64,000 nt of DNA from Alphaproteobacteria bacterium (GTDB lineage: Bacteria > Pseudomonadota > Alphaproteobacteria > UBA8366): the NCBI GenBank assembly GCA_009377445.1, contig WHUA01000004.1, forward strand, positions 85,273-149,272, written 5' to 3'. The position numbers were made by a program, and so were the translations under genes. Position 1 is the first letter of the stretch, and the number at the start of each line of letters is the position of its first letter. The notes beneath the pieces were generated by a model, which was given only the letters and a program-made list of their open reading frames with translations, made no database searches and had not been told where the DNA came from. This document shows positions 1,610 to 53,838 of this stretch, piece by piece.

Positions 1610-1815
1610 GCCAGGGAACCGGCCTTCAGGAAGAGCAGACGGCCCGCCCGGCCATCACGGAACTGTAAAATTAGTGCAAGAAAATCCGGTTTTTGTTTCC
1701 GTTCTGTTACGGATATTTGAATATTTGGCGAATACACATCCATTACTATTGTTATCTAAATATTCGGCGTCTATATCCCAGATAAAATAGACAGTTATTA
1801 AAACGGGGATTGGTC

Positions 1816-4434: not shown

Positions 4435-4468
4435 CGGCCGGATTGCGCGTACGCATCCTTCGACAGGC

Positions 4469-5594: not shown

Positions 5595-6146
5595 CTAGGC
5601 AGCGTCGTCGAGCCTGCTCGCACCGGCCCGTTCGCCGTCCAGTACGGCGGCGGCGGCATGAACGACCGCCGCGATCTTCACGGCCGCTTGAACCTGCTCA
5701 GGCCGCACGCCTGCCTTCCGCAGCTCCTTCTCATGCGCGTCGATGCACATGCCGCAACCGTTGATCGCCGATACCGCGAGGGACCACAGCTCGAAGTCCG
5801 CACGGTCGACGCCGGGATTGCCGATCACGTTCATCCGGAGTCCCGCTCGCATGGCGCCGTACTCGGGCGCGGAGGCCAAATGCACGAAGCGGTAGTAGAT
5901 GTTGTTCATCGCCATGACCGCCGCGGCCGCCTTCGCCGCGTTCAGCGCCTCGGCGGAGAGGCGCGTTGCCGCCTCCGCCTCCACCGCCGCGATGACCGCG
6001 CCGTTGCGGCTCGCCAGCGCGGCGGCAACCAGCGTGCCGTAGCGCTGCTGCTCGCTCAACGCCTCGTCGTCGACGACGCTGGAGAGATTCAGCTTGATAT
6101 CCTTGGCATAGGCCGGAAGGGCCTGTTTTATGTTGTCGAGGGACAT
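5595..6146 (-). CDS. ahpD: Alkyl hydroperoxidase AhpD
   Basis: 183-aa product [21 protein letters not shown]... with the carboxymuconolactone-decarboxylase-type CxxC motif ([11 protein letters not shown]). It lies immediately downstream of ahpC. The longer ORF 5595..6611 is an artefact. Confidence 0.9.
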
Positions 6147-6184: not shown

Positions 6185-6736
6185 TCACGCCGCGAGCGTC
6201 ACGCCGCCGACCTGGCGGTTGCACGGACAGAGCTCGTCCGTCTGCAGCGCGTCGAGCACGCGAAGGACCTCGCGCGGGTTGCGGCCGACATTGAGGTTGT
6301 TGACCGACACATGCTGGATCACGTTGTGCGGGTCGACGATGAAGGTCGCGCGCAGCGCCACGCCGTCCGGCGAGCGGACGCCGAGACCGTCGACCAGCGA
6401 TCCGTTCGTATCTGCGAAGGACCACTGGCTGAGCTTGCTCAGGTCGGGATGGTCGCGCCGCCACGCGAGCTTGCAGAACTCGTTGTCGGTGCTGCCGCCC
6501 ATGACGATGCAGTCGCGATCGGCGAAGTCCTCCTCCAACGCGGCGAACTCGACGATTTCGGTCGGGCAGACGAAGGTGTAGTCCTTCGGATAGAAGAAGA
6601 TGACCTTCCATTTGCCCGGAAAGCTGTCGGGCGTGACCGTCTCGAATGCGGTCTGGCCGTTTTCTTCATGATTGTTGAAGCCGGGACGCACGCCGGTCAC
6701 GGAAAATTCGGGAAGGGTATCGCCTACGCAAAGCAT
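6185..6736 (-). CDS. ahpC: Peroxiredoxin AhpC (AhpC/TSA family)
   Basis: Carries the peroxidatic Cys motif [14 protein letters not shown] and a resolving Cys near the C terminus (ELCPCN). Divergent from oxyR. Confidence 0.9.
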
Positions 6737-6790
6737 TGAAGTCTCCTGGTCTGAGGGTTAGAGCGCGAGATGCTGTTGACCTGAGACAAC

Positions 6791-6830
6791 ATAGGCATAA
6801 ATTAGAATGCATCTAATTGTTAATAACGTT
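6791..6830. promoter_or_regulatory. Candidate OxyR/LysR operator in the ahpC-oxyR divergent intergenic region
   Basis: The sequence ATAG-N7-TTAG-N7-CTAA-N7-TAAC is spaced like the OxyR tetranucleotide consensus. It contains a perfect 7-bp inverted repeat AATTAGA-N5-TCTAATT at 6800..6818. Confidence 0.45.
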
Positions 6831-6853
6831 AACTGCCATCGGTCGAAACGATA

Positions 6854-7894
6854 ATGAGCCACGCAGCCCAGCCGCAGCCCGACCGCCAGATTCCGGCTTT
6901 GCCGACGCTGCGCCAGCTCCAATACCTGATCGCGCTAGCCAAATACCGCTCCTTCAGCCGTGCCGCGGCCGCCTGCTGCGTCACCCAGTCGACGCTCAGC
7001 GGCGCCATAAAGGAGCTCGAATCGACGCTGGGCGCCCGCCTTGTCGACCGCGACAACCGAAGCGTGATCGTCACCGGCGCCGGGGAGGACGCCCTCGCCC
7101 GCGCGCGGCGGATCGTCGCCGACGCGGAAGCGCTGCTCGACTGGGCGCGTCGCGGTTCCGGGCCGCTTTCCGGGACGCTGCGGCTCGGGATCATCCCGAC
7201 CATCGCACCCTTCTTGCTGCCCCGCGCGCTGCCGCGGCTCAAGGGGGCCTTCCCCGACCTCGTTTTGCGGCTGCGCGAGGAAACCACCGCAAAGCTGCTC
7301 GATTCCCTTCGGGCGGGCGAGCTAGATCTCGTCCTGATGGCCTTTCCCTATGACGCGCCGGGGCTCGAAACGGCGATCGTCGCGGAGGATCCGCTCATGC
7401 TGACCGAGCCGGGCACGGCGGCGGATGCGAAGCCGCGCGCCGGCATGGACGACCTGGCCGGGCGCCCGCTGCTGCTGCTGGAGGACGGCCATTGCCTGCG
7501 CGATCACGCGCTGGCCGCCTGCTCGCTCCCGAGCGCCCGGGTGGACGAGTTCGGCGCGACGAGCCTGTTCACCCTGGCGCGCATGGTGGAGGCGGGCTAC
7601 GGCGTCACGCTGCTGCCGAAGCTCGCCGTCGACGCCGGCCTTTGCGACAGCGCGAAGGTCACCGTCCGGCCCCTGAATTCGGCGGCGCCTGCGCGCCGGA
7701 TCGGCCTCGCCTGGCGCCGCAACGCGAGCCGCGCGGAGGAATACAGGCTATTGCTCGATTTCCTCAAGGATTCGGGGCTGTTCGGAACACCGGCCGTCCT
7801 CCCTCACCGGTCGCCGCCGAGCCAGCCTTTCCGCCAGAACATGACAAGCATGCCGGCCGCAACCAGCGCCATCAAAAGCAGCGCGAAGGGATAG
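6854..7894 (+). CDS. oxyR: LysR-family peroxide-sensing regulator OxyR
   Basis: The N-terminal HTH is LRQLQYLIALAKYRSFSRAAAACCVTQSTLSGAIKELE. LLLLEDGHCLRDHALAAC aligns with the E. coli OxyR redox Cys199/Cys208 segment. The 3' end runs 91 nt into the convergent corA. Confidence 0.88.
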   Translation: MSHAAQPQPDRQIPALPTLRQLQYLIALAKYRSFSRAAAACCVTQSTLSGAIKELESTLGARLVDRDNRSVIVTGAGEDALARARRIVADAEALLDWARRGSGPLSGTLRLGIIPTIAPFLLPRALPRLKGAFPDLVLRLREETTAKLLDSLRAGELDLVLMAFPYDAPGLETAIVAEDPLMLTEPGTAADAKPRAGMDDLAGRPLLLLEDGHCLRDHALAACSLPSARVDEFGATSLFTLARMVEAGYGVTLLPKLAVDAGLCDSAKVTVRPLNSAAPARRIGLAWRRNASRAEEYRLLLDFLKDSGLFGTPAVLPHRSPPSQPFRQNMTSMPAATSAIKSSAKG

Positions 7895-8913
7895 CCCAGG
7901 TACCAGTTCAGCTCCGGCATGTTCCAGGGCGACGTTTCCGTGTTGAAATTCATGCCGAAGATGCTGGCGATGACGCTGAGCGGCATGAAGATGGTGGCGA
8001 TGATCGTCAGGACCTTCATGATCTCGTTCATGCGGTTGCTGACGGTCGACAGGTACAGCTCGAACAGGTTGGTCGCGAAGTCCCGGTAGGTCTCGGTCAT
8101 GTCGAGCAACTGCACCGTGTGGTCGTAGCAGTCCCGAAGAAAGATCTGCGTCGTTTCCGTAAACCCGACATAGGCGTCGCGGCTCAAGGCGGCGAGCATC
8201 TCGCGCTGCGCCCAGATCGTCTTGCGCAGCAGGAACAGATCGCGTCGCGCCGCGTGGATCTGCCGGACGACGGACTTGTTCGCCCGCTCGACCACCAACA
8301 GCTCGAGCTGCTCGATCAAATCGCCGTAGCGCTCGACCGGCGCGAAATAGTTATCCACCAATGTGTCGATCAGCGCATAGGCCAGGTAATCCGGCCCGCC
8401 CTTGCGCAGCCTGCCCCGCCCGTGCCGGATGCGCTCGCGGAGCGCCCCGAAGCAATCGCCCGGCCGCTCCTGAAACGTCAGCACGAAGCGCTCGCCGACG
8501 AATATCGAGAATTGTTCGGTCGCCAGCGCCGGTTCAGCGTTCAGCATGTTGCAGACGATGAACGTGAAATCCTCGTAATCCTCGACCTTCGGGCGCTGAT
8601 GCACGTTGACCACGTCCTCCAGCGCCAGGCTGTGCAGCCGGAAGATGCGTCCAAGCCCCTCGATGACGGCCGCCGTGCCGAGCCCCGTCACGTCGATCCA
8701 TACGACCGGCCAGCGCTTCAACAAGCCGGGAATGGCCTCCAGCGATATATCTTCGGCCGACTCCACGTCGTCCGGCCCATAGGCGAGGACATTCATGCGC
8801 GACGGCAGCGCGTCCTCGTGCACGACGATGCTTCCGGGCGGCGCGCCGGGCGTCGAGCGCCGCCGCGACCGCGGGATCGGGTAACGCACATGCCGCTTGC
8901 TCTTCGTCGACAT
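7804..8913 (-). CDS. corA: Magnesium/cobalt transporter CorA
   Basis: Has the C-terminal two-TM region with the GMN motif (IFGMNFNTETSPW) and a typical cytoplasmic N-terminal domain. Confidence 0.88.
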   Translation of the reverse strand: MSTKSKRHVRYPIPRSRRRSTPGAPPGSIVVHEDALPSRMNVLAYGPDDVESAEDISLEAIPGLLKRWPVVWIDVTGLGTAAVIEGLGRIFRLHSLALEDVVNVHQRPKVEDYEDFTFIVCNMLNAEPALATEQFSIFVGERFVLTFQERPGDCFGALRERIRHGRGRLRKGGPDYLAYALIDTLVDNYFAPVERYGDLIEQLELLVVERANKSVVRQIHAARRDLFLLRKTIWAQREMLAALSRDAYVGFTETTQIFLRDCYDHTVQLLDMTETYRDFATNLFELYLSTVSNRMNEIMKVLTIIATIFMPLSVIASIFGMNFNTETSPWNMPELNWYLGYPFALLLMALVAAGMLVMFWRKGWLGGDR

Positions 8914-8965
8914 CGTCCATCTCCGGTTGGGGCGAGCGCTGGGGCGGATATCATACCGCCGCCGC

Positions 8966-9889
8966 TCAGAGGGTCGCCGGGTCGATGTAGTAGGTGTCGT
9001 CCGGCGCCACGGTCAGATCCCACAGCATCCGCGCGCCGACCGCCAGCACCATGATCGCCAGCATCATCCGGAGCCGGTCGGCGGAAATGCGCGGCGCCAG
9101 CCGGGCGCCGAGCTGTGCGCCGACGACGCCGCCCACCAGCAGGAGCAGGGTCAGCACGATATCGACCGTCTGGAAGCGCTGCGCCTGCAGGAAGGTCACG
9201 TTGGCGGTGACGAAGATGATCATGAACAGCGAGGTGCCAACGACGACGGCGGTGCGCATTCCGATGAGGTAGATCATCAGCGGGACCATCAGAAATCCGC
9301 CGCCGACGCCCATGATCGCCGAAAGGATGCCGCCGACGAGGCCGACCGCGACCGGCAAGATCGCGCTGATGTAGAGGTGCGAGCGGTAGAATCGCATCTT
9401 GAGCGGCAGGCCGTGCATCCAGGTATGCCGGTGCGGCCCGCGATCCTGAACCCGCGGCATGCCCTTGCGCGCCTTGAACAAAGTGCGCAGCCCCTCGATC
9501 AGCATCAAACTGCCGATGGTTCCGAGCAGAATCACGTAGCTGAGCGCCACGACGAGGTCGACCTGGCCGTATTCGCGCAATACACCGAACAGCCAGACCC
9601 CGACGGTCGAGCCGCTCAGCGCGCCGATCAACAGGACGCCCCCCATCTTCACGTCGACATTGCCGCGCCGCCAGTGGACGAGCACGCCCGAGACGGAGGC
9701 GCCGAGCACCTGATTGGCGCCGGACGCAACGGCGACCGGTGCGGGAATGCCGAGGAAGATCAACAGCGGCGTCAGCAGGAATCCGCCGCCGACGCCGAAC
9801 AGTCCGGAGAGGAAGCCGACCCCGCCGCCGACCGCGAGAAGCAGGAAGATGTTCTCGGCGAGCTCGGCGATCGGCAGATAGATATACAA
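8966..9889 (-). CDS. TauE/SafE family sulfite/anion exporter (DUF81)
   Basis: 307-aa polytopic protein with duplicated GxGGG motifs (GVGGGFLLTPLL and MGVGGGFLMVPLM). TTG start. Confidence 0.85.
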   Translation of the reverse strand: MYIYLPIAELAENIFLLLAVGGGVGFLSGLFGVGGGFLLTPLLIFLGIPAPVAVASGANQVLGASVSGVLVHWRRGNVDVKMGGVLLIGALSGSTVGVWLFGVLREYGQVDLVVALSYVILLGTIGSLMLIEGLRTLFKARKGMPRVQDRGPHRHTWMHGLPLKMRFYRSHLYISAILPVAVGLVGGILSAIMGVGGGFLMVPLMIYLIGMRTAVVVGTSLFMIIFVTANVTFLQAQRFQTVDIVLTLLLLVGGVVGAQLGARLAPRISADRLRMMLAIMVLAVGARMLWDLTVAPDDTYYIDPATL

Positions 9890-10073
9890 GCGTCGTCCCG
9901 CAGGCGATCAGTTTGATTGGCAAGTGGCCGCCCTGGCCACTGCAACGTGCGGTGGGAATACACGCAGACGGGTGCGCGGTCTAGCGGCCTACTGTCGCAG
10001 CAGAACTAACACAGAAAGGACGCGGCCGGGAAAATTCCGCATCCGTCCGCTCGACCGCGCCAACAGCGGGTCG

Positions 10074-10280
10074 TCAGGCGCGCCGGCCGAGAAAAAGCAT
10101 AGCCGCGCCCACGGCTATGCCGACGGCACCCAGGATGAGATACAGCATCGTAGAGTCGGTAAACTTCCCGGTAAATGCCTCGGAAATCCGATCCGCAGGC
10201 GCGTCGGACGCGTTGATGCCGAATATCAGCAGCACAACGCCCAACACCAACAGCACGACGGCGATCGCTCGACCATTCAT
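10074..10280 (-). CDS. Small two-TM membrane protein (DUF3185-like)
   Basis: 68-aa ORF with ATG preceded by GGAGG and two hydrophobic helices. The family assignment is from memory only. Confidence 0.6.
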   Translation of the reverse strand: MNGRAIAVVLLVLGVVLLIFGINASDAPADRISEAFTGKFTDSTMLYLILGAVGIAVGAAMLFLGRRA

Positions 10281-45955: not shown

Positions 45956-47212
45956 TTATGAGGGCAGCGGGCGGTCCCGCCCGTAGCGGACGTCGGCCCG
46001 GTTCTTGAGCCAAGTGTAGATCGTAACGCGCGAGACGCCGAACTGCCGCGCCGTTCGCGTCACGTTGTTCGCGTTCGCAGCCAGGGCGCGCCGCAGCTCG
46101 TCGACCGACGGCTTCCGCTGGCGAAGCATGGGACGGCCAACGAGGGCGCCCTCGCCGGCCGGCCGGATCGTCAGATCGTCCCGGCGCAGAAATGCGAAGT
46201 CCTTCGCCTCCAGCGCCGTGCCGTCGCACAGGATGACGGCGCGGCGCATTGCGCTGATCAGCTCGCGCACGTTTCCGGGCCAATCGTAAGATTGCAGGAG
46301 ATGCAGCACGGAATCGGACAAGCGCGGGCATGTCACCCCGTGCTCTTCGCTGACGCGGCGCAGCACATAGCGCACGAGCACATCCATGTCGCCCTGACGC
46401 TCCCGCAACGCCGGCAGCTCCAGCCGGAGGACATTGAGCCGGAAATACAGGTCCTTGCGGAAGAAGCCGCCGCGTATCGCCTGCTCGAGATTGACGTTCG
46501 TCGCCGTCACGACGCGCAGACGCACGTGGATCAGCTCCTTGCCGCCCACCCGGCGGAAAGTCATGTCCTGCAGGAATCGGAGAAGCTGCGGCTGCAAGGA
46601 CAGCGGCATGTCGCCGATCTCGTCGAGGAACAGCGTCCCCCCGTCGGCGGCTTCGATGCGCCCGATGCGCCTTTCCGTCGCGCCGGTGAATGCTCCCCGC
46701 TCGTATCCGAAAAGCTCGGACGCGACGAGGTTCTCGGGAAGACCGCCGCAATTGATCGCAATGAACGGTCCCTTGCCGAAGAACGAGCGTTCATGAATCG
46801 CTTTCGCGGCGAGCTCCTTCCCGGTGCCGCTCTCGCCGCTGATCAACACCGGCGCATCGACCTTCGCAAACCGGCGGATGCGGTCGAACACCGCCTTCAT
46901 CGCCGGGCAGGCGCCGACCATCACGGGATCGTCCTCGGCTTCGACAGCCGGCGAGCTCTTTCGCGCGCGAAGCACGTCATCGGCGACCTCTTCGATGAGG
47001 TCCGGATGACGCGCCACGATTCCAAGCAGGATATCGGCAAGTTTCTCAGGTATAAGATGTTTCAGCTCTTCGCGAGCGAGAGATGCCGCGCGTGCGTGCG
47101 GCAAACCCGAAGCGACACCGACCGGACCGATCGTAGCGCGCCCGTCCCGATGCACCGAGATCGCTACCTCCTCCCGCCTCTGCGCCGCCCTCAGAGCGGG
47201 CTGGCGCACCAC
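45956..47212 (-). CDS. Sigma-54-dependent transcriptional activator (bacterial enhancer-binding protein, Fis-type HTH)
   Basis: The AAA+ core has GESGTGKE, the GAFTGA loop (ERGAFTGA) and DWPGNVREL. The C-terminal HTH is NVTRTARQFGVSRVTIYTWLK. The N-terminal region is short (~95 aa) and is not a receiver domain. GTG start, uncertain. Confidence 0.85.
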   Translation of the reverse strand: MVRQPALRAAQRREEVAISVHRDGRATIGPVGVASGLPHARAASLAREELKHLIPEKLADILLGIVARHPDLIEEVADDVLRARKSSPAVEAEDDPVMVGACPAMKAVFDRIRRFAKVDAPVLISGESGTGKELAAKAIHERSFFGKGPFIAINCGGLPENLVASELFGYERGAFTGATERRIGRIEAADGGTLFLDEIGDMPLSLQPQLLRFLQDMTFRRVGGKELIHVRLRVVTATNVNLEQAIRGGFFRKDLYFRLNVLRLELPALRERQGDMDVLVRYVLRRVSEEHGVTCPRLSDSVLHLLQSYDWPGNVRELISAMRRAVILCDGTALEAKDFAFLRRDDLTIRPAGEGALVGRPMLRQRKPSVDELRRALAANANNVTRTARQFGVSRVTIYTWLKNRADVRYGRDRPLPS

Positions 47213-47446
47213 CTGTCAGTTGTGATCTTAGCCGCAGACCACGTCATTTTTCAAACAACTATCAGTCGTACCCACGATACCCGCGGGCGGTATTCCAATA
47301 ACGCGTGTATATCTGGGTAAGTTCTCTTAACCGATCTTTGCGTTACTATTTCGCAACGTGCGATTATTTTATCATACATTCAAACGCGCGTTGTTTGTAA
47401 TTTAAGGTTAATTTGGCCATACTTGCGGTGAAGCAGGGAGGCACAA

Positions 47447-48799
47447 ATGAACAATATTTCCGTGTCTTATCATCGAAATATTCTTTTTTTGCTCTCTTTC
47501 GTTGTTATTCAAATCTACGTTATCAAAACTGCGCTCGCTTCGGAGTTGCGGCAATATGACAATGAAATCAGCCAACTCGAACAATCTCTGACAGAGCAGA
47601 AACAGCGCATGAAGGCGCAGGAGCGCCTGCTGGAAGAGTATCGGGCCGCACTGGACCGTCAGAGCGGCGACTTAGACGCACTCAAACGCCAGGTCCAGGA
47701 AAAGGCGGTACAAGAGAGCGCGGCTTCCGCCCCGCACGCGAACGGCATCCCCCGGGTGCAACCGGCTTCTCTTCCCGGCGATCGGGGTGCGGTCGCGCCC
47801 GTGCAACCCAACGGCGCGGGAAGGCACGGCGCAACGCCTGCCGCGAGCAAATCGGCGGTCGCGCAGTCGACCTCGGTACAGGAGGAAAAGCCGCGCGAAC
47901 GTCCCGATGTGCCGCTGATCGTGGATAGGGGCGGCGTCCTTCTCCGCCAGGGCGAAATCGTGATCGAACCGGCCCTCGATTTCAGCCTCGTCGAAACGAA
48001 CCGTGTCGAAGTCGCCGGCTTTACCGTGCTGCCGGCGATTCTCATCGGGAATTTCGATGTCTCGCAGGTCGAGCGAGAGACGCTCACCGCCGCCCTGACG
48101 GGACGGATCGGCGTCACGGACCGGCTTGAGCTGGAGGCCCGCGTCCCTTATGTCCGCCGCGACGATCGTGAAACGCGCCGGCCGATCGGAACGGGCGCCG
48201 CCGATGACGAAACCGTCGACATCGACGGCGACGGCCTCGGCGACATCGAATTCGCAGCGCACTACCAGATCAATGACGGCGTCGGCCGTTGGCCTTACTT
48301 CGTCGCCAACATGCGGGCGAAATCCGATACGGGAACCAGCCCGTTCGATGTCGACACCGATGCCTCGGGCAATCCGACCGAGCTTCCCACCGGCACAGGG
48401 TTCTGGAGCCTGCAGCCCAGCATCACCGCGATCGTGCCGACCGATCCCGCGGTCGTATTCGCCAATATCAACTACACCTGGAACATGTCGAGAGACGTCG
48501 ACGGATTCGGCGACATCGACCCCGGCGATACTTTCGGCGGAAGCCTGGGTCTCGGATTCGCGTTGAACGAAAAGCTGTCCATCAGCATGGCGTATGACCA
48601 CATCTATGTCCTGGAGACGACCCAGAACGGGGCGGACAACAACTCCGCCTTCCATGTCGGGCGGATGCTGTTCGGCGGCTCCTACCGGTTCGCCGACCGC
48701 GCCGCGGTCAACCTGAACTTCGCGGTCGGCGTCACCGAGCAGGCGCCGGATATCCAGACAGAGCTGCGCGTGCCGATAAGCTTCCGCCCGTTCAATTGA
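47447..48799 (+). CDS. Outer-membrane beta-barrel protein with N-terminal coiled coil and A/P-rich linker (FapF-like architecture)
   Basis: Has a signal peptide (..IKTALA-SE), a heptad-rich helix ELRQYDNEISQLEQSLTEQKQRMKAQERLLEEYRAALDRQSGDLDALKRQVQEK and a low-complexity linker. About 300 aa of alternating amphipathic strands follow, ending in ELRVPISFRPFN. ATG follows GGGAGG. Confidence 0.65.
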   Translation: MNNISVSYHRNILFLLSFVVIQIYVIKTALASELRQYDNEISQLEQSLTEQKQRMKAQERLLEEYRAALDRQSGDLDALKRQVQEKAVQESAASAPHANGIPRVQPASLPGDRGAVAPVQPNGAGRHGATPAASKSAVAQSTSVQEEKPRERPDVPLIVDRGGVLLRQGEIVIEPALDFSLVETNRVEVAGFTVLPAILIGNFDVSQVERETLTAALTGRIGVTDRLELEARVPYVRRDDRETRRPIGTGAADDETVDIDGDGLGDIEFAAHYQINDGVGRWPYFVANMRAKSDTGTSPFDVDTDASGNPTELPTGTGFWSLQPSITAIVPTDPAVVFANINYTWNMSRDVDGFGDIDPGDTFGGSLGLGFALNEKLSISMAYDHIYVLETTQNGADNNSAFHVGRMLFGGSYRFADRAAVNLNFAVGVTEQAPDIQTELRVPISFRPFN

Positions 48800-48814: not shown

Positions 48815-49423
48815 TCAGCGGAACGTACTGAGGTGGCGAAGCTGACTCATGCGGGTCTGCATGTTCGTCACCGCCTGCGGCTGGATGAACTGGCTCGCTT
48901 GCAGATCGAGCTGGACCGCCATCTGTTGCTGGATGACCACGTTCGACAGCGTGTTCTGCACCGTCATCATGAAGCCGTTCGCGCCGTTGAAACTGGTCGG
49001 CGCCACATTGCCGTTCCCGGCCTGGACGGATGTCACGATCTGGTTGATCGCATCGGCCAGCTTCACGTTGCCTGTGACAGGCACACCGAACCCGCTCGTG
49101 TCGAAATTCGTCACGCCCCCGGTAATCCCGGTCGCGGGCGAGAAGGTAAGCCGGCCTTCGTAAATCCGCTGGCCGTTGATCTGGGCGGCGACATCTATCG
49201 CGAAATTCAACAGGCCGGTCGGCATGACGAACCCGCCCCGCATCCGGGCGAGCTGCTCGTCCGGAACCACCTCGTAGCGCGCGAATTCGGCGACAAGCTG
49301 CCGGCCGGCCGGGCGCATCTCCTGCGCCGGCGCCGGGCCCGGCGCCATTGCACCGACAAGGGCGAAGACGGTGAGCGCCCAGCCCGCCCGCCATCTCGCC
49401 GCCCCTGCTGCAATGCGCAACAT
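48815..49423 (-). CDS. Secreted protein sharing the cluster C-terminal VQN..NV.IQ..MAV motif
   Basis: Signal peptide ..APGPAPA-QE. VTSVQAGNGNVAPTSF and FMMTVQNTLSNVVIQQQMAVQLDL are related to the repeats of the 560-aa and 121-aa proteins. The start lies 1 nt after the upstream stop. Confidence 0.6.
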   Translation of the reverse strand: MLRIAAGAARWRAGWALTVFALVGAMAPGPAPAQEMRPAGRQLVAEFARYEVVPDEQLARMRGGFVMPTGLLNFAIDVAAQINGQRIYEGRLTFSPATGITGGVTNFDTSGFGVPVTGNVKLADAINQIVTSVQAGNGNVAPTSFNGANGFMMTVQNTLSNVVIQQQMAVQLDLQASQFIQPQAVTNMQTRMSQLRHLSTFR

Positions 49424-49424
49424 C

Positions 49425-50153
49425 TCAAAAATCCCCCGGCCTCGGCATCAATAAGTTGAACGAAGCGAGACTTGCCCGACTGAGCGCCGTGCCGAACGGC
49501 GCACTGTGGCGCACTTTCCAAGCCTCGGCCCGATTGAAGGTCTCGTTGGCCGACTTGTTCTTGTTCTGAATGACGAAGGCGATGCCGTTCCACATGGCTT
49601 CAAACTCGCCGCGCGGATAGGTCTTCATGCCAAGCGCAGGATCGCCGACCAGGACCTCGGTATCGCTGACGCCCTTCACCACCACGAAATGCAGGTACCC
49701 CTTCAAATTCATCAACACCACACCGGGGATCTTCGCCTGCACGAAGGCATCGAGCGGCGCCTTGAAGCCGTTCGCCGCGAAACCCTCCCGCTCGAGGTAT
49801 TCCTTCATGTCCAGCAGCGAGAAGCCCTGCGTCCGAATCTTCGACTCCTCGCCGAACAGGAGCATCGAATCGAAAATCTCCATCTCAGTCACGGCGAAGC
49901 CGTAGTGATAGGTGAGAAGCGTCGCGAGCGCGGCCGATCCGCAACTGAAGTCGAACTGTTGCTTGATGACGTCCTTGAATCGCGCCTCCTTGATGCTCGT
50001 CACCTCGACGCGGACATAGCCCAATCCGCCCGGCGCGACGGTTCCCGCCACGGACGGCGCTGCATGCGCCAGGAAGGCCATAAGGCTGCCCGAGGCGATG
50101 CAGGCCGTGACGCAGCGCAAACGCGCCCGCGAGCTATTGAACGAAGTTGACAT
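49425..50153 (-). CDS. Periplasmic C39-like cysteine peptidase (FapD-like)
   Basis: Has an N-terminal signal/anchor. QQFDFSCGSAALATLLTY supplies the catalytic Cys, and GYLHFVVVKGVSDTEVLVGDP supplies the His and Asp. No ABC transporter domains are attached. Confidence 0.75.
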   Translation of the reverse strand: MSTSFNSSRARLRCVTACIASGSLMAFLAHAAPSVAGTVAPGGLGYVRVEVTSIKEARFKDVIKQQFDFSCGSAALATLLTYHYGFAVTEMEIFDSMLLFGEESKIRTQGFSLLDMKEYLEREGFAANGFKAPLDAFVQAKIPGVVLMNLKGYLHFVVVKGVSDTEVLVGDPALGMKTYPRGEFEAMWNGIAFVIQNKNKSANETFNRAEAWKVRHSAPFGTALSRASLASFNLLMPRPGDF

Positions 50154-50499
50154 CGACCGCCATGTTGGTCTGGATGATCACATTGTTGCCGATATTCTGA
50201 ACGGCCACGAAGGCGCCCGCCGAGTTCGCGAGCGCGCCGTTACCGATCACATTGTTCGCGGTGAACGCCCCGCTCGTCGACGAATTTCCGGTAAGCGTCG
50301 CCGTCATGTTGCCGAGCGTACAGCCCGACGCGCAGTCCGGCAGCGCCATGCCGCGCAGGGTTTCGAGCTCCGCCGCGTCGACGGGCTGTCCGAAATGCGC
50401 CTGCAGCAGCGCCGCATCGTCGGCGCGTGCTGCTCCCGAGACGGCAACCGCCGCCGCCGCGGCGAAGATGAGAGAAACTCCGATACTGGGGGTCATCAT
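50134..50499 (-). CDS. Small secreted protein carrying a single copy of the cluster repeat
   Basis: Signal peptide ..VSGAARA-DD. NVIGNGALANSAGAFVAVQNIGNNVIIQTNMAV aligns position by position with the NTIDGGAFNDGAGIATVQQNNGDNNVINA unit of the 560-aa protein. ATG 50499 is preferred over TTG 50511. It overlaps the next gene by 20 nt. Confidence 0.6.
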   Translation of the reverse strand: MMTPSIGVSLIFAAAAAVAVSGAARADDAALLQAHFGQPVDAAELETLRGMALPDCASGCTLGNMTATLTGNSSTSGAFTANNVIGNGALANSAGAFVAVQNIGNNVIIQTNMAVDVNFVQ

Positions 50500-50542: not shown

Positions 50543-50570
50543 GGAAGGTGAGGACACGCCCCCACCTTCC
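50543..50570 (-). terminator. Stem-loop between the repeat-protein gene and downstream genes (possible partial terminator/attenuator)
   Basis: GGAAGGTG-N12-CACCTTCC is a perfect 8-bp stem 18 nt after the stop at 50588. On the transcribed strand it is followed by ACCTCTTTGTT, which is only a weak U-tract. Confidence 0.35.
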
Positions 50571-50587: not shown

Positions 50588-52270
50588 TTAAGGCGTAATG
50601 ACGTTGGCCACCACGGCAATCGAAGACTGTATCGCGTTGTTGCTGCCGTTGTTCTGCTGCACCGTCTTGATGCCGGCGAAGCCGTTGAACGAGTCGGACA
50701 GCGTGTTCTGGTATCCCGGCGGCACGTTCGTCGGCGCGATGACTGCAATATTTCCGGATACCACCGCCGTGATCGTCGTATCGTCGACGATACTGCCATT
50801 GAACCCGACGAAGTTCGCATTGTCGCTGAGCCCGGCGACGACCGCCTTGGATGCGTTGATCACGTTGTTGTCGCCGTTGTTCTGCTGCACGGTGGCGATA
50901 CCGGCGCCGTCGTTGAAGGCGCCGCCGTCGATCGTATTGACGCGGTCGACGTTGGCGGTCTCGACGGCGAGATTGTTCGTGACCTCGGCATGCGTACGCG
51001 CGTCTACCGCCGCATCCCCTCCGTCGATCTGACCGCTGGTGAACAGCGTGGCGACAACGGCAGTCAGCGCATTCATTGCGTTGTTGTTGCCGTTGTTCTG
51101 CTGCACCGCCGTCAAGCCGACGGCTTCCGAGAACGAGCCCTCGTCGATGGTGTTGATCCGGTTCTGATCCTGGTCCGTCGTGTTGAGGCTCGAGTTGTTG
51201 TTCGTGACAAACCCGGCCGCGCTCACGACAACAGCGGACGCGTCATCGATATCATCCACGGTGAGGAAATGTGCCCGCACCGCGTTGCCGACGTTCATGG
51301 CGTTATTGTCGCCGTTGTTCTGCTGCACGTTGACGATGCCGCCCGGACCCACGAACGCATCGCTGATGAGGTTCGTCCGATCGTACGGCGTCGGCGGTCC
51401 GGCGTCGCTCTGGGCAAAGCCGGTATTGTTGGTCACCACCGCGGTTGCAACGAGCGATTGCAGTGCGTCTTCGCTGGGGTCTACGTCGGTCGTGGTGCCG
51501 AGGTCGGCGATGACGGAGTTGGCCGCCTGGATGACGTTGCCGTTGCCGTTGTTCTGCTGCACCGACGCCATGCCGACGAACTCCGCGAATGCGCCGCCGT
51601 CGATCGTGTTGGTCCGCTCGCCGGTGATATCGCCGCCGCTGACGACGTTCACCTCCGATGTGATAAGGCCGGTCACGGTCGCTTCGAGGAGAACTTCCTG
51701 CGAGCTGTCGTCGTGGTTCTCGCCATTCTGGCCGAAGAGGTTCGGGCCGATATTGGCCGAAACGACGTCGCCGATCCCGAGGACGTTCCCGTCGCCGTTG
51801 TTCTGCTGCACATCGACGATGCCGCTGGCGCCCGCGAACGCATCGGTGATCGTATTCTCGCGGAAGGACGACGCGAGCGGCCCCGGCGCGTTGTTGGAGT
51901 AGTCGCCGCCGATCGTCGACCCGCGAAGCCAGAGCTGCTGCGACACGTCACCCCCGCTCCCAGGGGCCGCCGTGCTGATGACGACGTTCGACGCGATTCC
52001 TAACGCGTTGCTGTTGCCGTTGTTCTGTTGGTCGTGGCTGATGCCCGTAAAATTGTTGGCATAGCCGCCACTGATATCGTTGCTTCGCAGAGATCCGGGA
52101 TCCAGCGTAAAGTTGACGCCTACGAACTGATCCAGCGTGAGCTGATCCGGCAAGGTGGGTACGAGCCCATTGTCGTTCTGCTGGATCTGCTGTGCGAGCG
52201 CCCCGCTCGAGGCCGCCCCGAGCAGAACCAGGGCCGAGGCCGAAGCCAGCAATACGTTTTTGAAGTTCAT
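50588..52270 (-). CDS. Secreted 560-aa N/Q/G-rich protein with seven VQQNNGxNN repeat units (putative fibre/amyloid major subunit)
   Basis: ATG 52270 follows AAGGAG. Signal peptide ..SSGALA-QQ. It carries seven units of the form N-T-I-D-x-x-F-x-x-x-x-G-I-x-x-V-Q-Q-N-N-G-x-x-N-x-x-x-x-x-x-x-V. No Cys residues and no recognisable anchor, autotransporter or RTX domain. Confidence 0.75.
   Translation of the reverse strand: MNFKNVLLASASALVLLGAASSGALAQQIQQNDNGLVPTLPDQLTLDQFVGVNFTLDPGSLRSNDISGGYANNFTGISHDQQNNGNSNALGIASNVVISTAAPGSGGDVSQQLWLRGSTIGGDYSNNAPGPLASSFRENTITDAFAGASGIVDVQQNNGDGNVLGIGDVVSANIGPNLFGQNGENHDDSSQEVLLEATVTGLITSEVNVVSGGDITGERTNTIDGGAFAEFVGMASVQQNNGNGNVIQAANSVIADLGTTTDVDPSEDALQSLVATAVVTNNTGFAQSDAGPPTPYDRTNLISDAFVGPGGIVNVQQNNGDNNAMNVGNAVRAHFLTVDDIDDASAVVVSAAGFVTNNNSSLNTTDQDQNRINTIDEGSFSEAVGLTAVQQNNGNNNAMNALTAVVATLFTSGQIDGGDAAVDARTHAEVTNNLAVETANVDRVNTIDGGAFNDGAGIATVQQNNGDNNVINASKAVVAGLSDNANFVGFNGSIVDDTTITAVVSGNIAVIAPTNVPPGYQNTLSDSFNGFAGIKTVQQNNGSNNAIQSSIAVVANVITP
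50646..52033 (-). repeat. In-frame periodic coding repeat (seven copies of CCGTTGTTCTGCTGCAC on the plus strand)
   Basis: Copies lie at 50646, 50874, 51090, 51312, 51546 and 51795, with a variant at 52017 (CCGTTGTTCTGTTGGTC). Spacings are 228, 216, 222, 234, 249 and 222 nt, all multiples of 3. Confidence 0.85.
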
Positions 52271-52421
52271 GTCTTGCTCACTCCTTATGTATGACACACA
52301 GGTTCCGACATGCAGTTTTCGTCGTTTCTGCCTTCGGCCGCTGCGCAAACGAGTGCCCGTGAGGCGGCCCGGCCTCTGCCCAAAAAGGGACACGCCGAAC
52401 AAGAAGACATTTGTGGAAGGC

Positions 52422-52436
52422 GCAATGATCGTGCCA
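52422..52436 (-). promoter_or_regulatory. Consensus sigma-54 promoter upstream of the repeat-protein gene
   Basis: The minus strand reads TGGCACG-ATCA-TTGC, an exact match to TGGCACG-N4-TTGC. It lies about 150 nt upstream of ATG 52270. Confidence 0.7.
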
Positions 52437-52544
52437 GCCGCGAAGCGCCCGGCGGGCGGCGGCAAACCGGCGGTAATTAACGAAGATTGACGCCCGGCCG
52501 GCCGGTGCGGACGGGGCGCGACTGTATCGATCTGTTAACGCTTA

Positions 52545-52570
52545 CTGTAAAGCTGACAGGCGCTTTACAG
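52545..52570. promoter_or_regulatory. Inverted repeat CTGTAAAGC-N8-GCTTTACAG, candidate enhancer (UAS) for the 52422 sigma-54 promoter
   Basis: A perfect 9-bp inverted repeat centred ~120-135 bp upstream of the -24/-12 element. The same CTGTAAA/TTTACAG half-sites recur at 53774..53801. Confidence 0.5.
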
Positions 52571-52606
52571 AATGCGGGACCATCAACCGCTTCTTTTTCA
52601 TTCTCG

Positions 52607-53224
52607 TTATTTCCAATCCTGGTAGATCGCGAGAAGCGTACGCCGATCCGGAACGCCGGTTTCCGGCAGCTTCTTCTTTTTCTGGTAGGTGCTGATCGCC
52701 GTCGCCGTACCCTTGCCGAACTTGCCGTCGACGGCGCCCTTGTAGAGTCCCTGTTGCTTCAATGTCTGCTGCACGCGGCGTACGGTTTCCTCGAAGACGT
52801 GGATCTTTCCCTTGCCGGCCTCGATGCTTGCGACCGGCGATTGGCTCTCGATCCGGTATTTGTGCAGCTCGCGCGTCACGACATAGACGGCCGACGCGAA
52901 ATTGACTTTCTTGTTGCCGTCGCAGAAGGTCGCGACCACGCCGGATATGGCGTCTAGATCGAAATCCGCGGCGGCGTCATACGTCTCCGCGCCGAACTGG
53001 CTGTAGGCGGTAATGTAGCCGTTGGCCCATTCCCGGAAGAAGAGATAGGCCGGCGACGCGGCCTTGCGTTCGGCGAGGTAGCGTTCGCAGGGCTGGCTGC
53101 CGAACCCGCGGACAAAGTAGTTTCCTGCCTTGTCCCCTGCGCTTGCCGCGCTGGCCGACATCATGACGGCGGCGATGAACACCAGCAGCGCCAGCGTCTT
53201 CTTGTTGCTTTTCTTCGTAGCCAC
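52607..53224 (-). CDS. Secreted protein with C-terminal peptidoglycan-binding (PG_binding_1-like) domain
   Basis: GTG 53224 follows AAAGGGGA. Signal peptide KKTLALLVFIAAVMMSASAASA. The C terminus VRRVQQTLKQQGLYKGAVDGKFGKGTATAISTYQKKKKLPETGVPDRRT is a typical PG-binding repeat. The upstream part of ORF 52607..53635 is rejected. Confidence 0.65.
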   Translation of the reverse strand: MATKKSNKKTLALLVFIAAVMMSASAASAGDKAGNYFVRGFGSQPCERYLAERKAASPAYLFFREWANGYITAYSQFGAETYDAAADFDLDAISGVVATFCDGNKKVNFASAVYVVTRELHKYRIESQSPVASIEAGKGKIHVFEETVRRVQQTLKQQGLYKGAVDGKFGKGTATAISTYQKKKKLPETGVPDRRTLLAIYQDWK

Positions 53225-53265
53225 CGGTTTCCCCTTTATTTCACGTCTTGGGCCGGACCCCGGAC

Positions 53266-53622
53266 TCAGCGGACCTGCACGTTGACGCCGCGCGCGACAG
53301 TCGAGTTGACGCCGCTCCCCGGCGACACCCCGTTTCGTTTCGGCCGGCCCAACTCGTCGAACAGGATGACCGATACATCGCCCGGCGGCGGCGCATCCGC
53401 CTCGACGGCGGTTTTCGCCCCCAGGCCGGAGACCGCTCGCAATTCGGCATCGTTTAGCTCGCCGCGGGCCGCAAAGGTCCCGGCGGCGCCCGTGCCGGGC
53501 ATGCCTGCCGCGTCGGCTGCCGTGACGCGCGGACGGATTTCGTCCGCCACCGCCGGCATCGCCGCGAGGGCCGTTCCAGCGCATAGCATTGTTGTCGCCA
53601 ACAGGCGACACGAGAACCGCAT
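53266..53622 (-). CDS. Small secreted protein (118 aa), first gene of the minus-strand cluster
   Basis: ATG follows GAGGTG. Signal peptide MRFSCRLLATTMLCAGTALAAMPAVA. Third-position GC is high. I recognise no family. Confidence 0.5.
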   Translation of the reverse strand: MRFSCRLLATTMLCAGTALAAMPAVADEIRPRVTAADAAGMPGTGAAGTFAARGELNDAELRAVSGLGAKTAVEADAPPPGDVSVILFDELGRPKRNGVSPGSGVNSTVARGVNVQVR

Positions 53623-53665
53623 CGTATTCGCTCACCTCGCCGTCATCGTATTGTCGCGAAAAGCA

Positions 53666-53680
53666 GCAAGAACCGTGCCG
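53666..53680 (-). promoter_or_regulatory. Sigma-54 promoter upstream of the 118-aa gene
   Basis: The minus strand reads CGGCACG-GTTC-TTGC; only the first base differs from TGGCACG-N4-TTGC. It lies about 45 nt upstream of ATG 53622. Confidence 0.65.
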
Positions 53681-53773
53681 CGCCGCCGCAAGGCGAATTC
53701 GGGCCGGCCAGCCTCGAATTGCCGTCTATTCCGCCTCGGAGGACGGCGTCTCCGCCGCATCGCACGGATCCGT

Positions 53774-53801
53774 CTGTAAATCCCCACTGTAAACTTTACA
53801 G
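53774..53801. promoter_or_regulatory. CTGTAAA half-site plus CTGTAAA-C-TTTACAG palindrome, candidate enhancer (UAS) for the 53666 sigma-54 promoter
   Basis: CTGTAAA lies at 53774..53780 and CTGTAAACTTTACAG at 53787..53801, about 95-135 bp upstream of the -24/-12 element. Confidence 0.5.
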
Positions 53802-53838
53802 CGCGCCGACGGCGCGCCGTTTCTGGTTTCCGTCCCGC

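Follow-up and report, generated by a model that had tools for sequence, protein, structure and literature searches.

In Pseudomonas fluorescens PF07, the functional amyloid (Fap) operon fapA-E is transcribed from a -24/-12 promoter mapped by 5' rapid amplification of cDNA ends, its expression falls in rpoN and brfA mutants, and the activator gene brfA lies next to fapF in the opposite orientation, with fapF itself not being co-induced (PMC9207406). The BrfA protein, D7M10_RS14495, is described as binding cyclic di-GMP (c-di-GMP) and directly regulating fapA by Guo et al. 2024 (Microbiol Res 287:127864), as that study is cited in PMC13101488 and bioRxiv 10.64898/2026.01.27.702051. Here we analyzed a Fap-like gene cluster in a 64-kb stretch of DNA from an uncultured alphaproteobacterial lineage (contig WHUA01000004.1; the whole stretch is hereafter called the window). 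The cluster is likely to be driven by two sigma-54 promoters, P1 and P2, with candidate enhancers located upstream of each of them and an activator gene adjacent to the cluster. This model, with its two promoters, a shared upstream site, and a cognate neighbouring activator, was put forward in the initial annotation of the window, and it is supported by phylogenetic footprinting and genomic association. The underlying idea is less novel than that annotation implied, since a Fap locus governed by sigma-54 together with a neighbouring activator has already been published for P. fluorescens.

As in the BrfA/RpoN/fapABCDE system of PF07, a -24/-12 promoter is present in front of the subunit operon (P1 before gC in the window), the activator gene adjoins the barrel (fapF) gene and points the other way, the unit induced by sigma-54 does not include the barrel gene, and the cluster encodes FapF- and FapD-type and probable FapB/C-type proteins. 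Unlike the PF07 locus, the window cluster is alphaproteobacterial, and the scores of its FapF and FapD homologues fall far short of the equivalog cut-offs. It has two predicted sigma-54 promoters instead of one, an extra promoter-distal gene pair (gA-gB) whose products are a small secreted protein and one that binds peptidoglycan, and a far larger subunit (560 amino acids [aa] with ~8-9 repeats). The N-terminus of the window activator, which was set against BrfA by description rather than by sequence, is short and helical, without a recognised sensor domain. In contrast to the c-di-GMP sensor BrfA, nothing in the window points to c-di-GMP sensing.

The activators with a VpsR domain (PF20161) that accompany Fap-like clusters of beta-, gamma-, and deltaproteobacteria (among others, at loci L011, L012, L019, and L025) provide a second comparison. 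Like the window activator, they are encoded beside a FapF-like gene, combine an AAA+/GAFTGA core with a Fis-type helix-turn-helix (HTH; a near-threshold match in the window activator), and occur with a sigma-54 site before the subunit gene; unlike them, the window activator has no VpsR domain. The features that are new in the window are the short N-terminal module in place of the VpsR domain typical of cluster-linked activators and a defined candidate enhancer. With these results, the lineage gains a concrete candidate circuit for the production of a fibre or biofilm matrix, composed of two promoters, enhancer half-sites, and a named activator gene.

Predicted promoters P1 and P2 and their conservation

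Scanning the window with the pattern TGGCACG-N4-TTGC detected P1 (TGGCACGATCATTGC, 52422-52436, minus strand) with 0 mismatches and P2 (CGGCACGGTTCTTGC, 53666-53680, minus strand) with a single mismatch, which falls on the first T, a non-critical position, exactly as the initial annotation had read these two sites. GG and GC lie exactly 10 nt apart in both cases; within TGGCACG-N4-TTGCW, P1 agrees at 15/15 positions and P2 at 14/15, and the 16-mer score is 11/12 for each of them. Both promoters are intergenic and lie on the coding strand. P1 is located 152 bp ahead of the ATG of gC (52270), the gene for the 560-aa protein, and P2 is located 44 bp ahead of the ATG of gA (53622), the first gene of the cluster, so that the two sites do precede the genes to which they had been assigned. 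A GAGGTGA ribosome-binding site is present downstream of P2. With +1 set 12 nt beyond the C that ends the GC element, transcription is predicted to start near position 52410 from P1 and near position 53654 from P2.

Strings resembling the -24/-12 consensus could also be present by chance in GC-rich DNA, with the cluster being read from sigma-70-type promoters. The number of matches with at most 1 mismatch in the window (3 observed versus 2.15 expected) is not significant and is compatible with such an origin, and therefore the case for P1 and P2 rests on their position and conservation. The closest distinct relatives of the locus, retrieved via the C39 peptidase of the cluster, were L082 (86% identity), L083 (74%), L086 (75%), and L003 (62%, a Paracoccaceae metagenome-assembled genome), along with others; a further sequence, L001, is a Logan contig that carries the same DNA as the window. 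In the alignment of the gB-gC intergenic region, P1 is kept in L082 (TGGCACGATCATTGCC) and L083 (TGGCATGAACGTTGCG), much of the spacer having diverged, and the P1 site of L086 is identical to that of the window. For P2, the retained sequences are CGGCATGCTTCTTGCT in L083 and CGGCACGTTTTTTGCT in L086, where the surrounding DNA is not alignable, and a sigma-54 promoter is also conserved at the orthologous position in L003.

We further surveyed 80 related loci from different species, scoring candidate sites out of 12 with the GG and GC elements fixed. Sites of at least 11/12 located 1-3 kb upstream of the C39 gene were found 13 times on the coding strand versus once on the other strand, with a background of 0-2 such sites per bin of ~60 kb. 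In L003, L004, L005, L019, and L079, a sigma-54 site stands immediately ahead of the subunit gene. The conservation of P1 and P2 in orthologous intergenic regions, the strong strand- and position-specific enrichment across the 80 loci, and the linkage of the cluster to an activator gene all speak against a chance origin of the two sites, and a promoter scan found no sigma-70-like match in either the P1 or the P2 intergenic region. We thus regard a chance origin as very improbable, and we infer that both P1 and P2 fire. Judging from these sequence comparisons, sigma-54 control, which has so far been proven for Pseudomonas Fap only, appears to be a general trait of the much wider family of FapD/FapF-type clusters in alpha-, beta-, gamma-, and deltaproteobacteria.

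The third sigma-54-like string of the window (CGGCACGCTGGTTGC, 6025-6039, minus strand) sits within long open reading frames (ORFs) and was rejected as a promoter on this ground, being probably a chance match. The leader of gC (52271-52410, minus strand) has a predicted length of ~140 nt, and several blocks of it are conserved in L082 and L083. The leader has no Rfam match at E<=1 and its fold is not unusually stable (z=-1.1), and a structured leader or riboswitch was therefore rejected.

Candidate enhancers and the activator gene

Upstream of each promoter, on the same strand, we identified a candidate enhancer composed of three half-sites in the order CTGTAAA-Nx-TTTACAG-N6-TT(T/A)ACAG. The candidate enhancer of P1, termed upstream activating sequence 1 (UAS1; 52532-52570, minus strand), consists of CTGTAAA (52570-52564), N12, TTTACAG (52551-52545), N6, and TTAACAG (52538-52532). 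That of P2 (UAS2; 53774-53801, minus strand) consists of CTGTAAA (53801-53795), N1, TTTACAG (53793-53787), N6, and TTTACAG (53780-53774). The initial annotation had described a CTGTAAA/TTTACAG inverted repeat upstream of each promoter; the positions it gave stand, but the elements are not simple inverted repeats. UAS1 contains the inverted repeat IR1 (52545-52570; 9-bp arms separated by 8 nt) and UAS2 contains IR2 (53787-53801; 7-bp arms separated by 1 nt), to which the third half-site is added (53774-53780 in UAS2). UAS1 extends from ~-160 to -122 and UAS2 from ~-147 to -120. The tandem pair of half-sites, which has a period of 13 bp, keeps a fixed distance from the promoter (-141 to -122 for P1, -139 to -120 for P2). 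How far upstream of the pair the inverted CTGTAAA is found varies (-160 at P1 with N12, and -147 at P2 with N1).

The word CTGTAAA or its complement occurs 6 times in the 64 kb versus 1.24 expected, and 5 of these 6 copies fall within UAS1 and UAS2. The initial annotation had noticed no other copy of the half-site in the window; one further copy is present at 1663-1669 (plus strand), inside a long ORF and probably by chance. For the composite TTTACAG-N6-TTWACAG, the window has two copies versus 0.01 expected, both of them at the two enhancers.

The candidate enhancers are conserved along with the promoters. The UAS1 stretch TTTACAGTAAGCGTTAACA is identical in L082 and L083 despite differing flanks, and the P1 enhancer of L086 reads CTGTAAAcTTAACAG-N6-TTAACG at the same distance as in the window. 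At P2, the enhancer of L083 reads ACTGTAAACTTTACAGT-N8-TTTACAG and spans -149 to -121 in otherwise unalignable DNA, and that of L086 reads CTGTAAA-N16-TTTACAG. The starting positions of half-sites fall within -124 to -129 and -137 to -142 at P1 and P2 of the window, in L082, at P1 and P2 of L083, and at P1 of L086; related half-site arrangements are present at P2 of L086 and in L090 and L003. These enhancer words and their fixed position could be used for the annotation of such promoters.

The location of IR1, 37 nt past the stop codon of gB, and its folding as a 9-bp stem (local fold z=-2.0) would also be expected of an RNA hairpin or terminator of the gA-gB transcript, whose likeness to the element at 53774-53801 would then be incidental. 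However, IR1 has neither a U-tract nor a T-run and was not called by the terminator scan, and the same half-sites recur ahead of P2, a place at which no co-directional gene terminates. L083 has lost the left arm of IR1 but keeps identical right and third half-sites, and its TTTACAGTAAGCGTTAACA is unchanged; this favours conservation of the words in the DNA over that of an RNA stem. An intrinsic terminator at IR1 was rejected on these grounds, and given also the chance expectation of the composite motif, we attach very little credence to an RNA-level explanation of this repeat.

Classical enhancers of the NtrC/NifA type are inverted repeats located ~100-150 bp upstream of -24/-12 promoters. UAS1 and UAS2 resemble these enhancers in their distance from the promoter, in the presence of multiple sites, and in their association with an AAA+ activator that has a probable C-terminal HTH, but their half-sites differ in both sequence and arrangement. 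In place of the NifA motif TGT-N10-ACA, the window has TGT-N7-ACA at P2 and TGT-N18-ACA at P1, and a NifA-type motif was rejected because this spacing does not fit. A CtrA-type motif was likewise rejected, the 13-bp period of the half-sites differing from the 11 bp of CtrA boxes. Also unlike the NtrC/NifA-type systems, the window activator contains neither a receiver nor a GAF domain.

The activator is encoded at 45956-47212 (minus strand; 418 aa), directly beside the cluster and divergent from the barrel gene (47447-48799, plus strand), in agreement with the initial annotation. This sigma-54 enhancer-binding protein has a short helical module at its N-terminus, followed by an AAA+ domain that carries GAFTGA (Sigma54_activat, PF00158, E=1.8e-66, and AAA_lid_14) and a probable C-terminal HTH of the Fis type (HTH_8, 21.1 bits). 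Its catalytic motifs, the Walker A sequence GESGTGKE and GAFTGA, are intact in the translation, and the segment NVTRTARQFGVSRVTIYTWLK aligns with the HTH of its homologues. Residues 1-100 matched no Pfam family at E<=0.1, and no REC, GAF, PAS, V4R, or VpsR domain was found in them. The N-terminus (46915-47212) contains the pattern L..LG...LADILL......P.L, which is common to many environmental activators of ~400 aa.

A sigma-54 activator gene is located within 8 kb in ~35 of the 80 surveyed loci, mostly beside the FapF-like gene. The cluster-linked activators are of at least two kinds, the two main classes being distinguished by a VpsR domain or a short helical N-terminus. The VpsR class (PF20161) includes 24 activators, of which 3 were verified with Pfam and the remainder were added by extension with jackhmmer. 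The window-like class includes 9 distinct loci, counting the window, whose activators share a short N-terminal module without a Pfam match. In the interval from -230 to -40, TGTAAA/TTTACA hexamers were found 11 times in 9 sites of window-like activator loci and were absent from all 15 promoters of VpsR-type loci, the background being 0.037 per 190 bp. The activator subfamily represented by P0167 is not cluster-linked, showing that window-like activators are not confined to Fap clusters. In a search seeded with a VpsR-type activator, Pseudomonas VpsR-domain proteins of 441 aa were also retrieved, and both of those that were looked up had cob and PBP neighbours, not fap.

Under the proposed model, sigma-54 RNA polymerase would occupy the -24/-12 elements of P1 and P2 in a closed complex. 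The product of the activator gene, presumably the protein that recognizes UAS1 and UAS2 rather than another regulator, would bind through its Fis-type HTH to the three TGTAAA/TT(T/A)ACA half-sites between ~-160 and -120, form an AAA+ ring, and contact the polymerase by DNA looping. ATP hydrolysis coupled through the GAFTGA loop would then open the promoters. In this way P2 would drive gA-gB, and P1 would drive gC followed by gD, the FapD-like peptidase gene, and gF. The genes for the FapF-like barrel and the activator itself would be transcribed separately, from a sigma-70-type promoter in the AT-rich divergent region between them.

Several observations, in addition to the chance-level count of sigma-54 matches, weigh against this model. 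No consensus site for integration host factor was found between enhancer and promoter at either P1 or P2, even with 1 mismatch allowed. The spacing of the inverted half-sites varies widely (N1, N12, N16, and N20), which is unusual for a single dimeric HTH site, and the HTH_8 match of the activator (E=2.5e-4) is just below the Pfam cut-off of 22 bits. Moreover, the distant window-like loci L071, L079, and L091 carry other half-sites (such as GAAACAG and CCTACAG) or none that are recognisable, suggesting that the half-site motif is clade-specific.

The variable spacing and the marginal HTH match would also be explained if the promoters depended on sigma-54 while the half-sites were bound by something else (for example, a repressor, a global regulator, or a nucleoid-associated protein), and the activator bound elsewhere or acted without specific DNA binding. 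Consistent with this possibility, the tandem TTAAC half-sites of L003 include TTAA-N7-TTAAC, which is similar to a CtrA box, and hexamers like those of the window are found upstream of sigma-54 sites in the Geobacter-type loci L006 and L008, whose activators have another N-terminus. On the other hand, the sites are located at the classical enhancer distance, which is equal at both promoters, and their tandem period is not that of CtrA. The half-sites accompany the window-like activator and never those of the VpsR type. Nearly all copies of the 7-mer in the window clade are located at these promoters (2 of 2 in L082, 4 of 4 in L083, and 4 of 5 in L086, as well as those counted above for the window), with the fifth copy of L086 lying between the barrel and activator genes. 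Based on these results, we consider binding of the half-sites by another protein unlikely and favour the neighbouring activator.

A broader proposal is possible but rather doubtful at present, namely that the window-type activators constitute a separate, mainly alphaproteobacterial branch of Fap regulation. The signal for such activators would not be c-di-GMP and would be received by the short, hitherto undescribed N-terminal helical module, perhaps by binding a partner or an anti-activator. They would act from a three-half-site enhancer fixed at ~-160 to -120 and co-activate gA-gB as well, giving a distinct variant of Fap that is tethered to the wall.

Some further features were noted at or near these elements. 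A perfect GC-rich palindrome, GCGCGCCGTCGGCGCGC (53801-53817), abuts the distal half-site of UAS2 and sits in the divergent region that also belongs to the gene for a SPOR lipoprotein. In L003, the tandem TTAAC half-sites at 4444-4459 form TTAACGGTTACTTAAC, and its likeness to a CtrA box is probably a by-product of the tandem sites. In L086, copies of TGTAAA and TTTACAG at positions 8150 and 8274, in the barrel-activator intergenic region, hint at autoregulation in that locus; no exact half-site copies matching them were found in the equivalent region of the window.

Genes of the Fap-like cluster

The predicted P1 operon begins with gC (50588-52270, minus strand), which encodes a secreted repeat protein of 560 aa (VQQNNGxxN) with ~8-9 copies of the unit F.G..G...VQQNNG..N. 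A direct Pfam scan of gC gave no match, and its repeats align by BLASTP (E=3e-11) with a 170-aa subunit of L091 (8026-8538, minus strand) that carries the precomputed Pfam label PF27129 FapBC. By this alignment, gC is probably an expanded subunit of the FapB/C type. The gene gD (50134-50496, minus strand), called in L001, encodes a small secreted protein of 120 aa with one subunit-like repeat and the C-terminal motif GAFVAVQNIGNNVIIQT. It is followed by the FapD-like C39 peptidase (49425-50153, minus strand; 242 aa; Peptidase_C39, E=4e-22), which matches NCBIfam FapD with 165.6 bits, below the equivalog cut-off of 330. The last gene of the operon, gF (48815-49423, minus strand), is an ORF for a predicted secreted protein of 202 aa with a signal-peptide-like N-terminus, and its synteny is kept in L003, L004, L082, and L083.

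The FapF-like outer-membrane barrel (47447-48799, plus strand) is a protein of 450 aa with an N-terminal coiled coil that matches NCBIfam FapF with 154.5 bits, below the equivalog cut-off of 700. Judged by these scores, the FapF- and FapD-type proteins of the window are homologous to those of Fap systems but distant from them. Since FapF and FapD are the nearest NCBIfam families and gC aligns with a FapBC-labelled subunit, the cluster is a distant relative of the Fap functional-amyloid system, the amyloid fibre itself being a prediction.

The genes predicted to be transcribed from P2 are gA (53266-53622, minus strand), an ORF with a signal peptide for a secreted protein of 118 aa, and gB (52607-53224, minus strand), which encodes a secreted protein of 205 aa with a C-terminal peptidoglycan-binding domain (PG_binding_1, E=6e-15). 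A homologue of gA is present in L083 at 6522-6875, and the gA-gB pair is kept with the cluster in L003, L004, L083, L086, and L090. To our knowledge, canonical fapA-F operons have not been described with a pair of this kind, and the window cluster may thus form a fibre that is anchored to the cell wall.

The barrel gene forms a separate transcription unit with no sigma-54 site upstream of it, and neither it nor the activator gene is under P1 or P2. The string TGGCC...TTGC at ~47413 was rejected as a sigma-54 promoter of the barrel gene because of its GG-N8-GC spacing. The region between the two genes (47213-47446) has a GC content of 44% versus 65% for the window, and L082, L083, and L086 all conserve its barrel-proximal part. 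Within this part, TTGTAA-N18-CATACT reads like a sigma-70-type promoter.

A terminator-like hairpin with a 12-bp stem, 7 GC pairs, and a T-rich tail (50543-50570, minus strand) is located 18 nt past the gC stop codon. This hairpin may attenuate the P1 operon, giving an excess of the gC subunit over gD, the peptidase, and gF. Further downstream, the start of the peptidase gene overlaps the end of gD by 20 nt (50134-50153), and the peptidase stop is separated from the gF start by 1 nt, which suggests translational coupling within the operon.

Among the more distant loci, L091 contains a compact Fap-type cluster with a window-like activator and an rpoN gene located 7 kb from this cluster (781-2283; 6844-10191). 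Its promoter reads TGGCACTCGACTTGCT, and the repeats upstream of it are CCTACAG and CCTACAT in place of TTTACAG.

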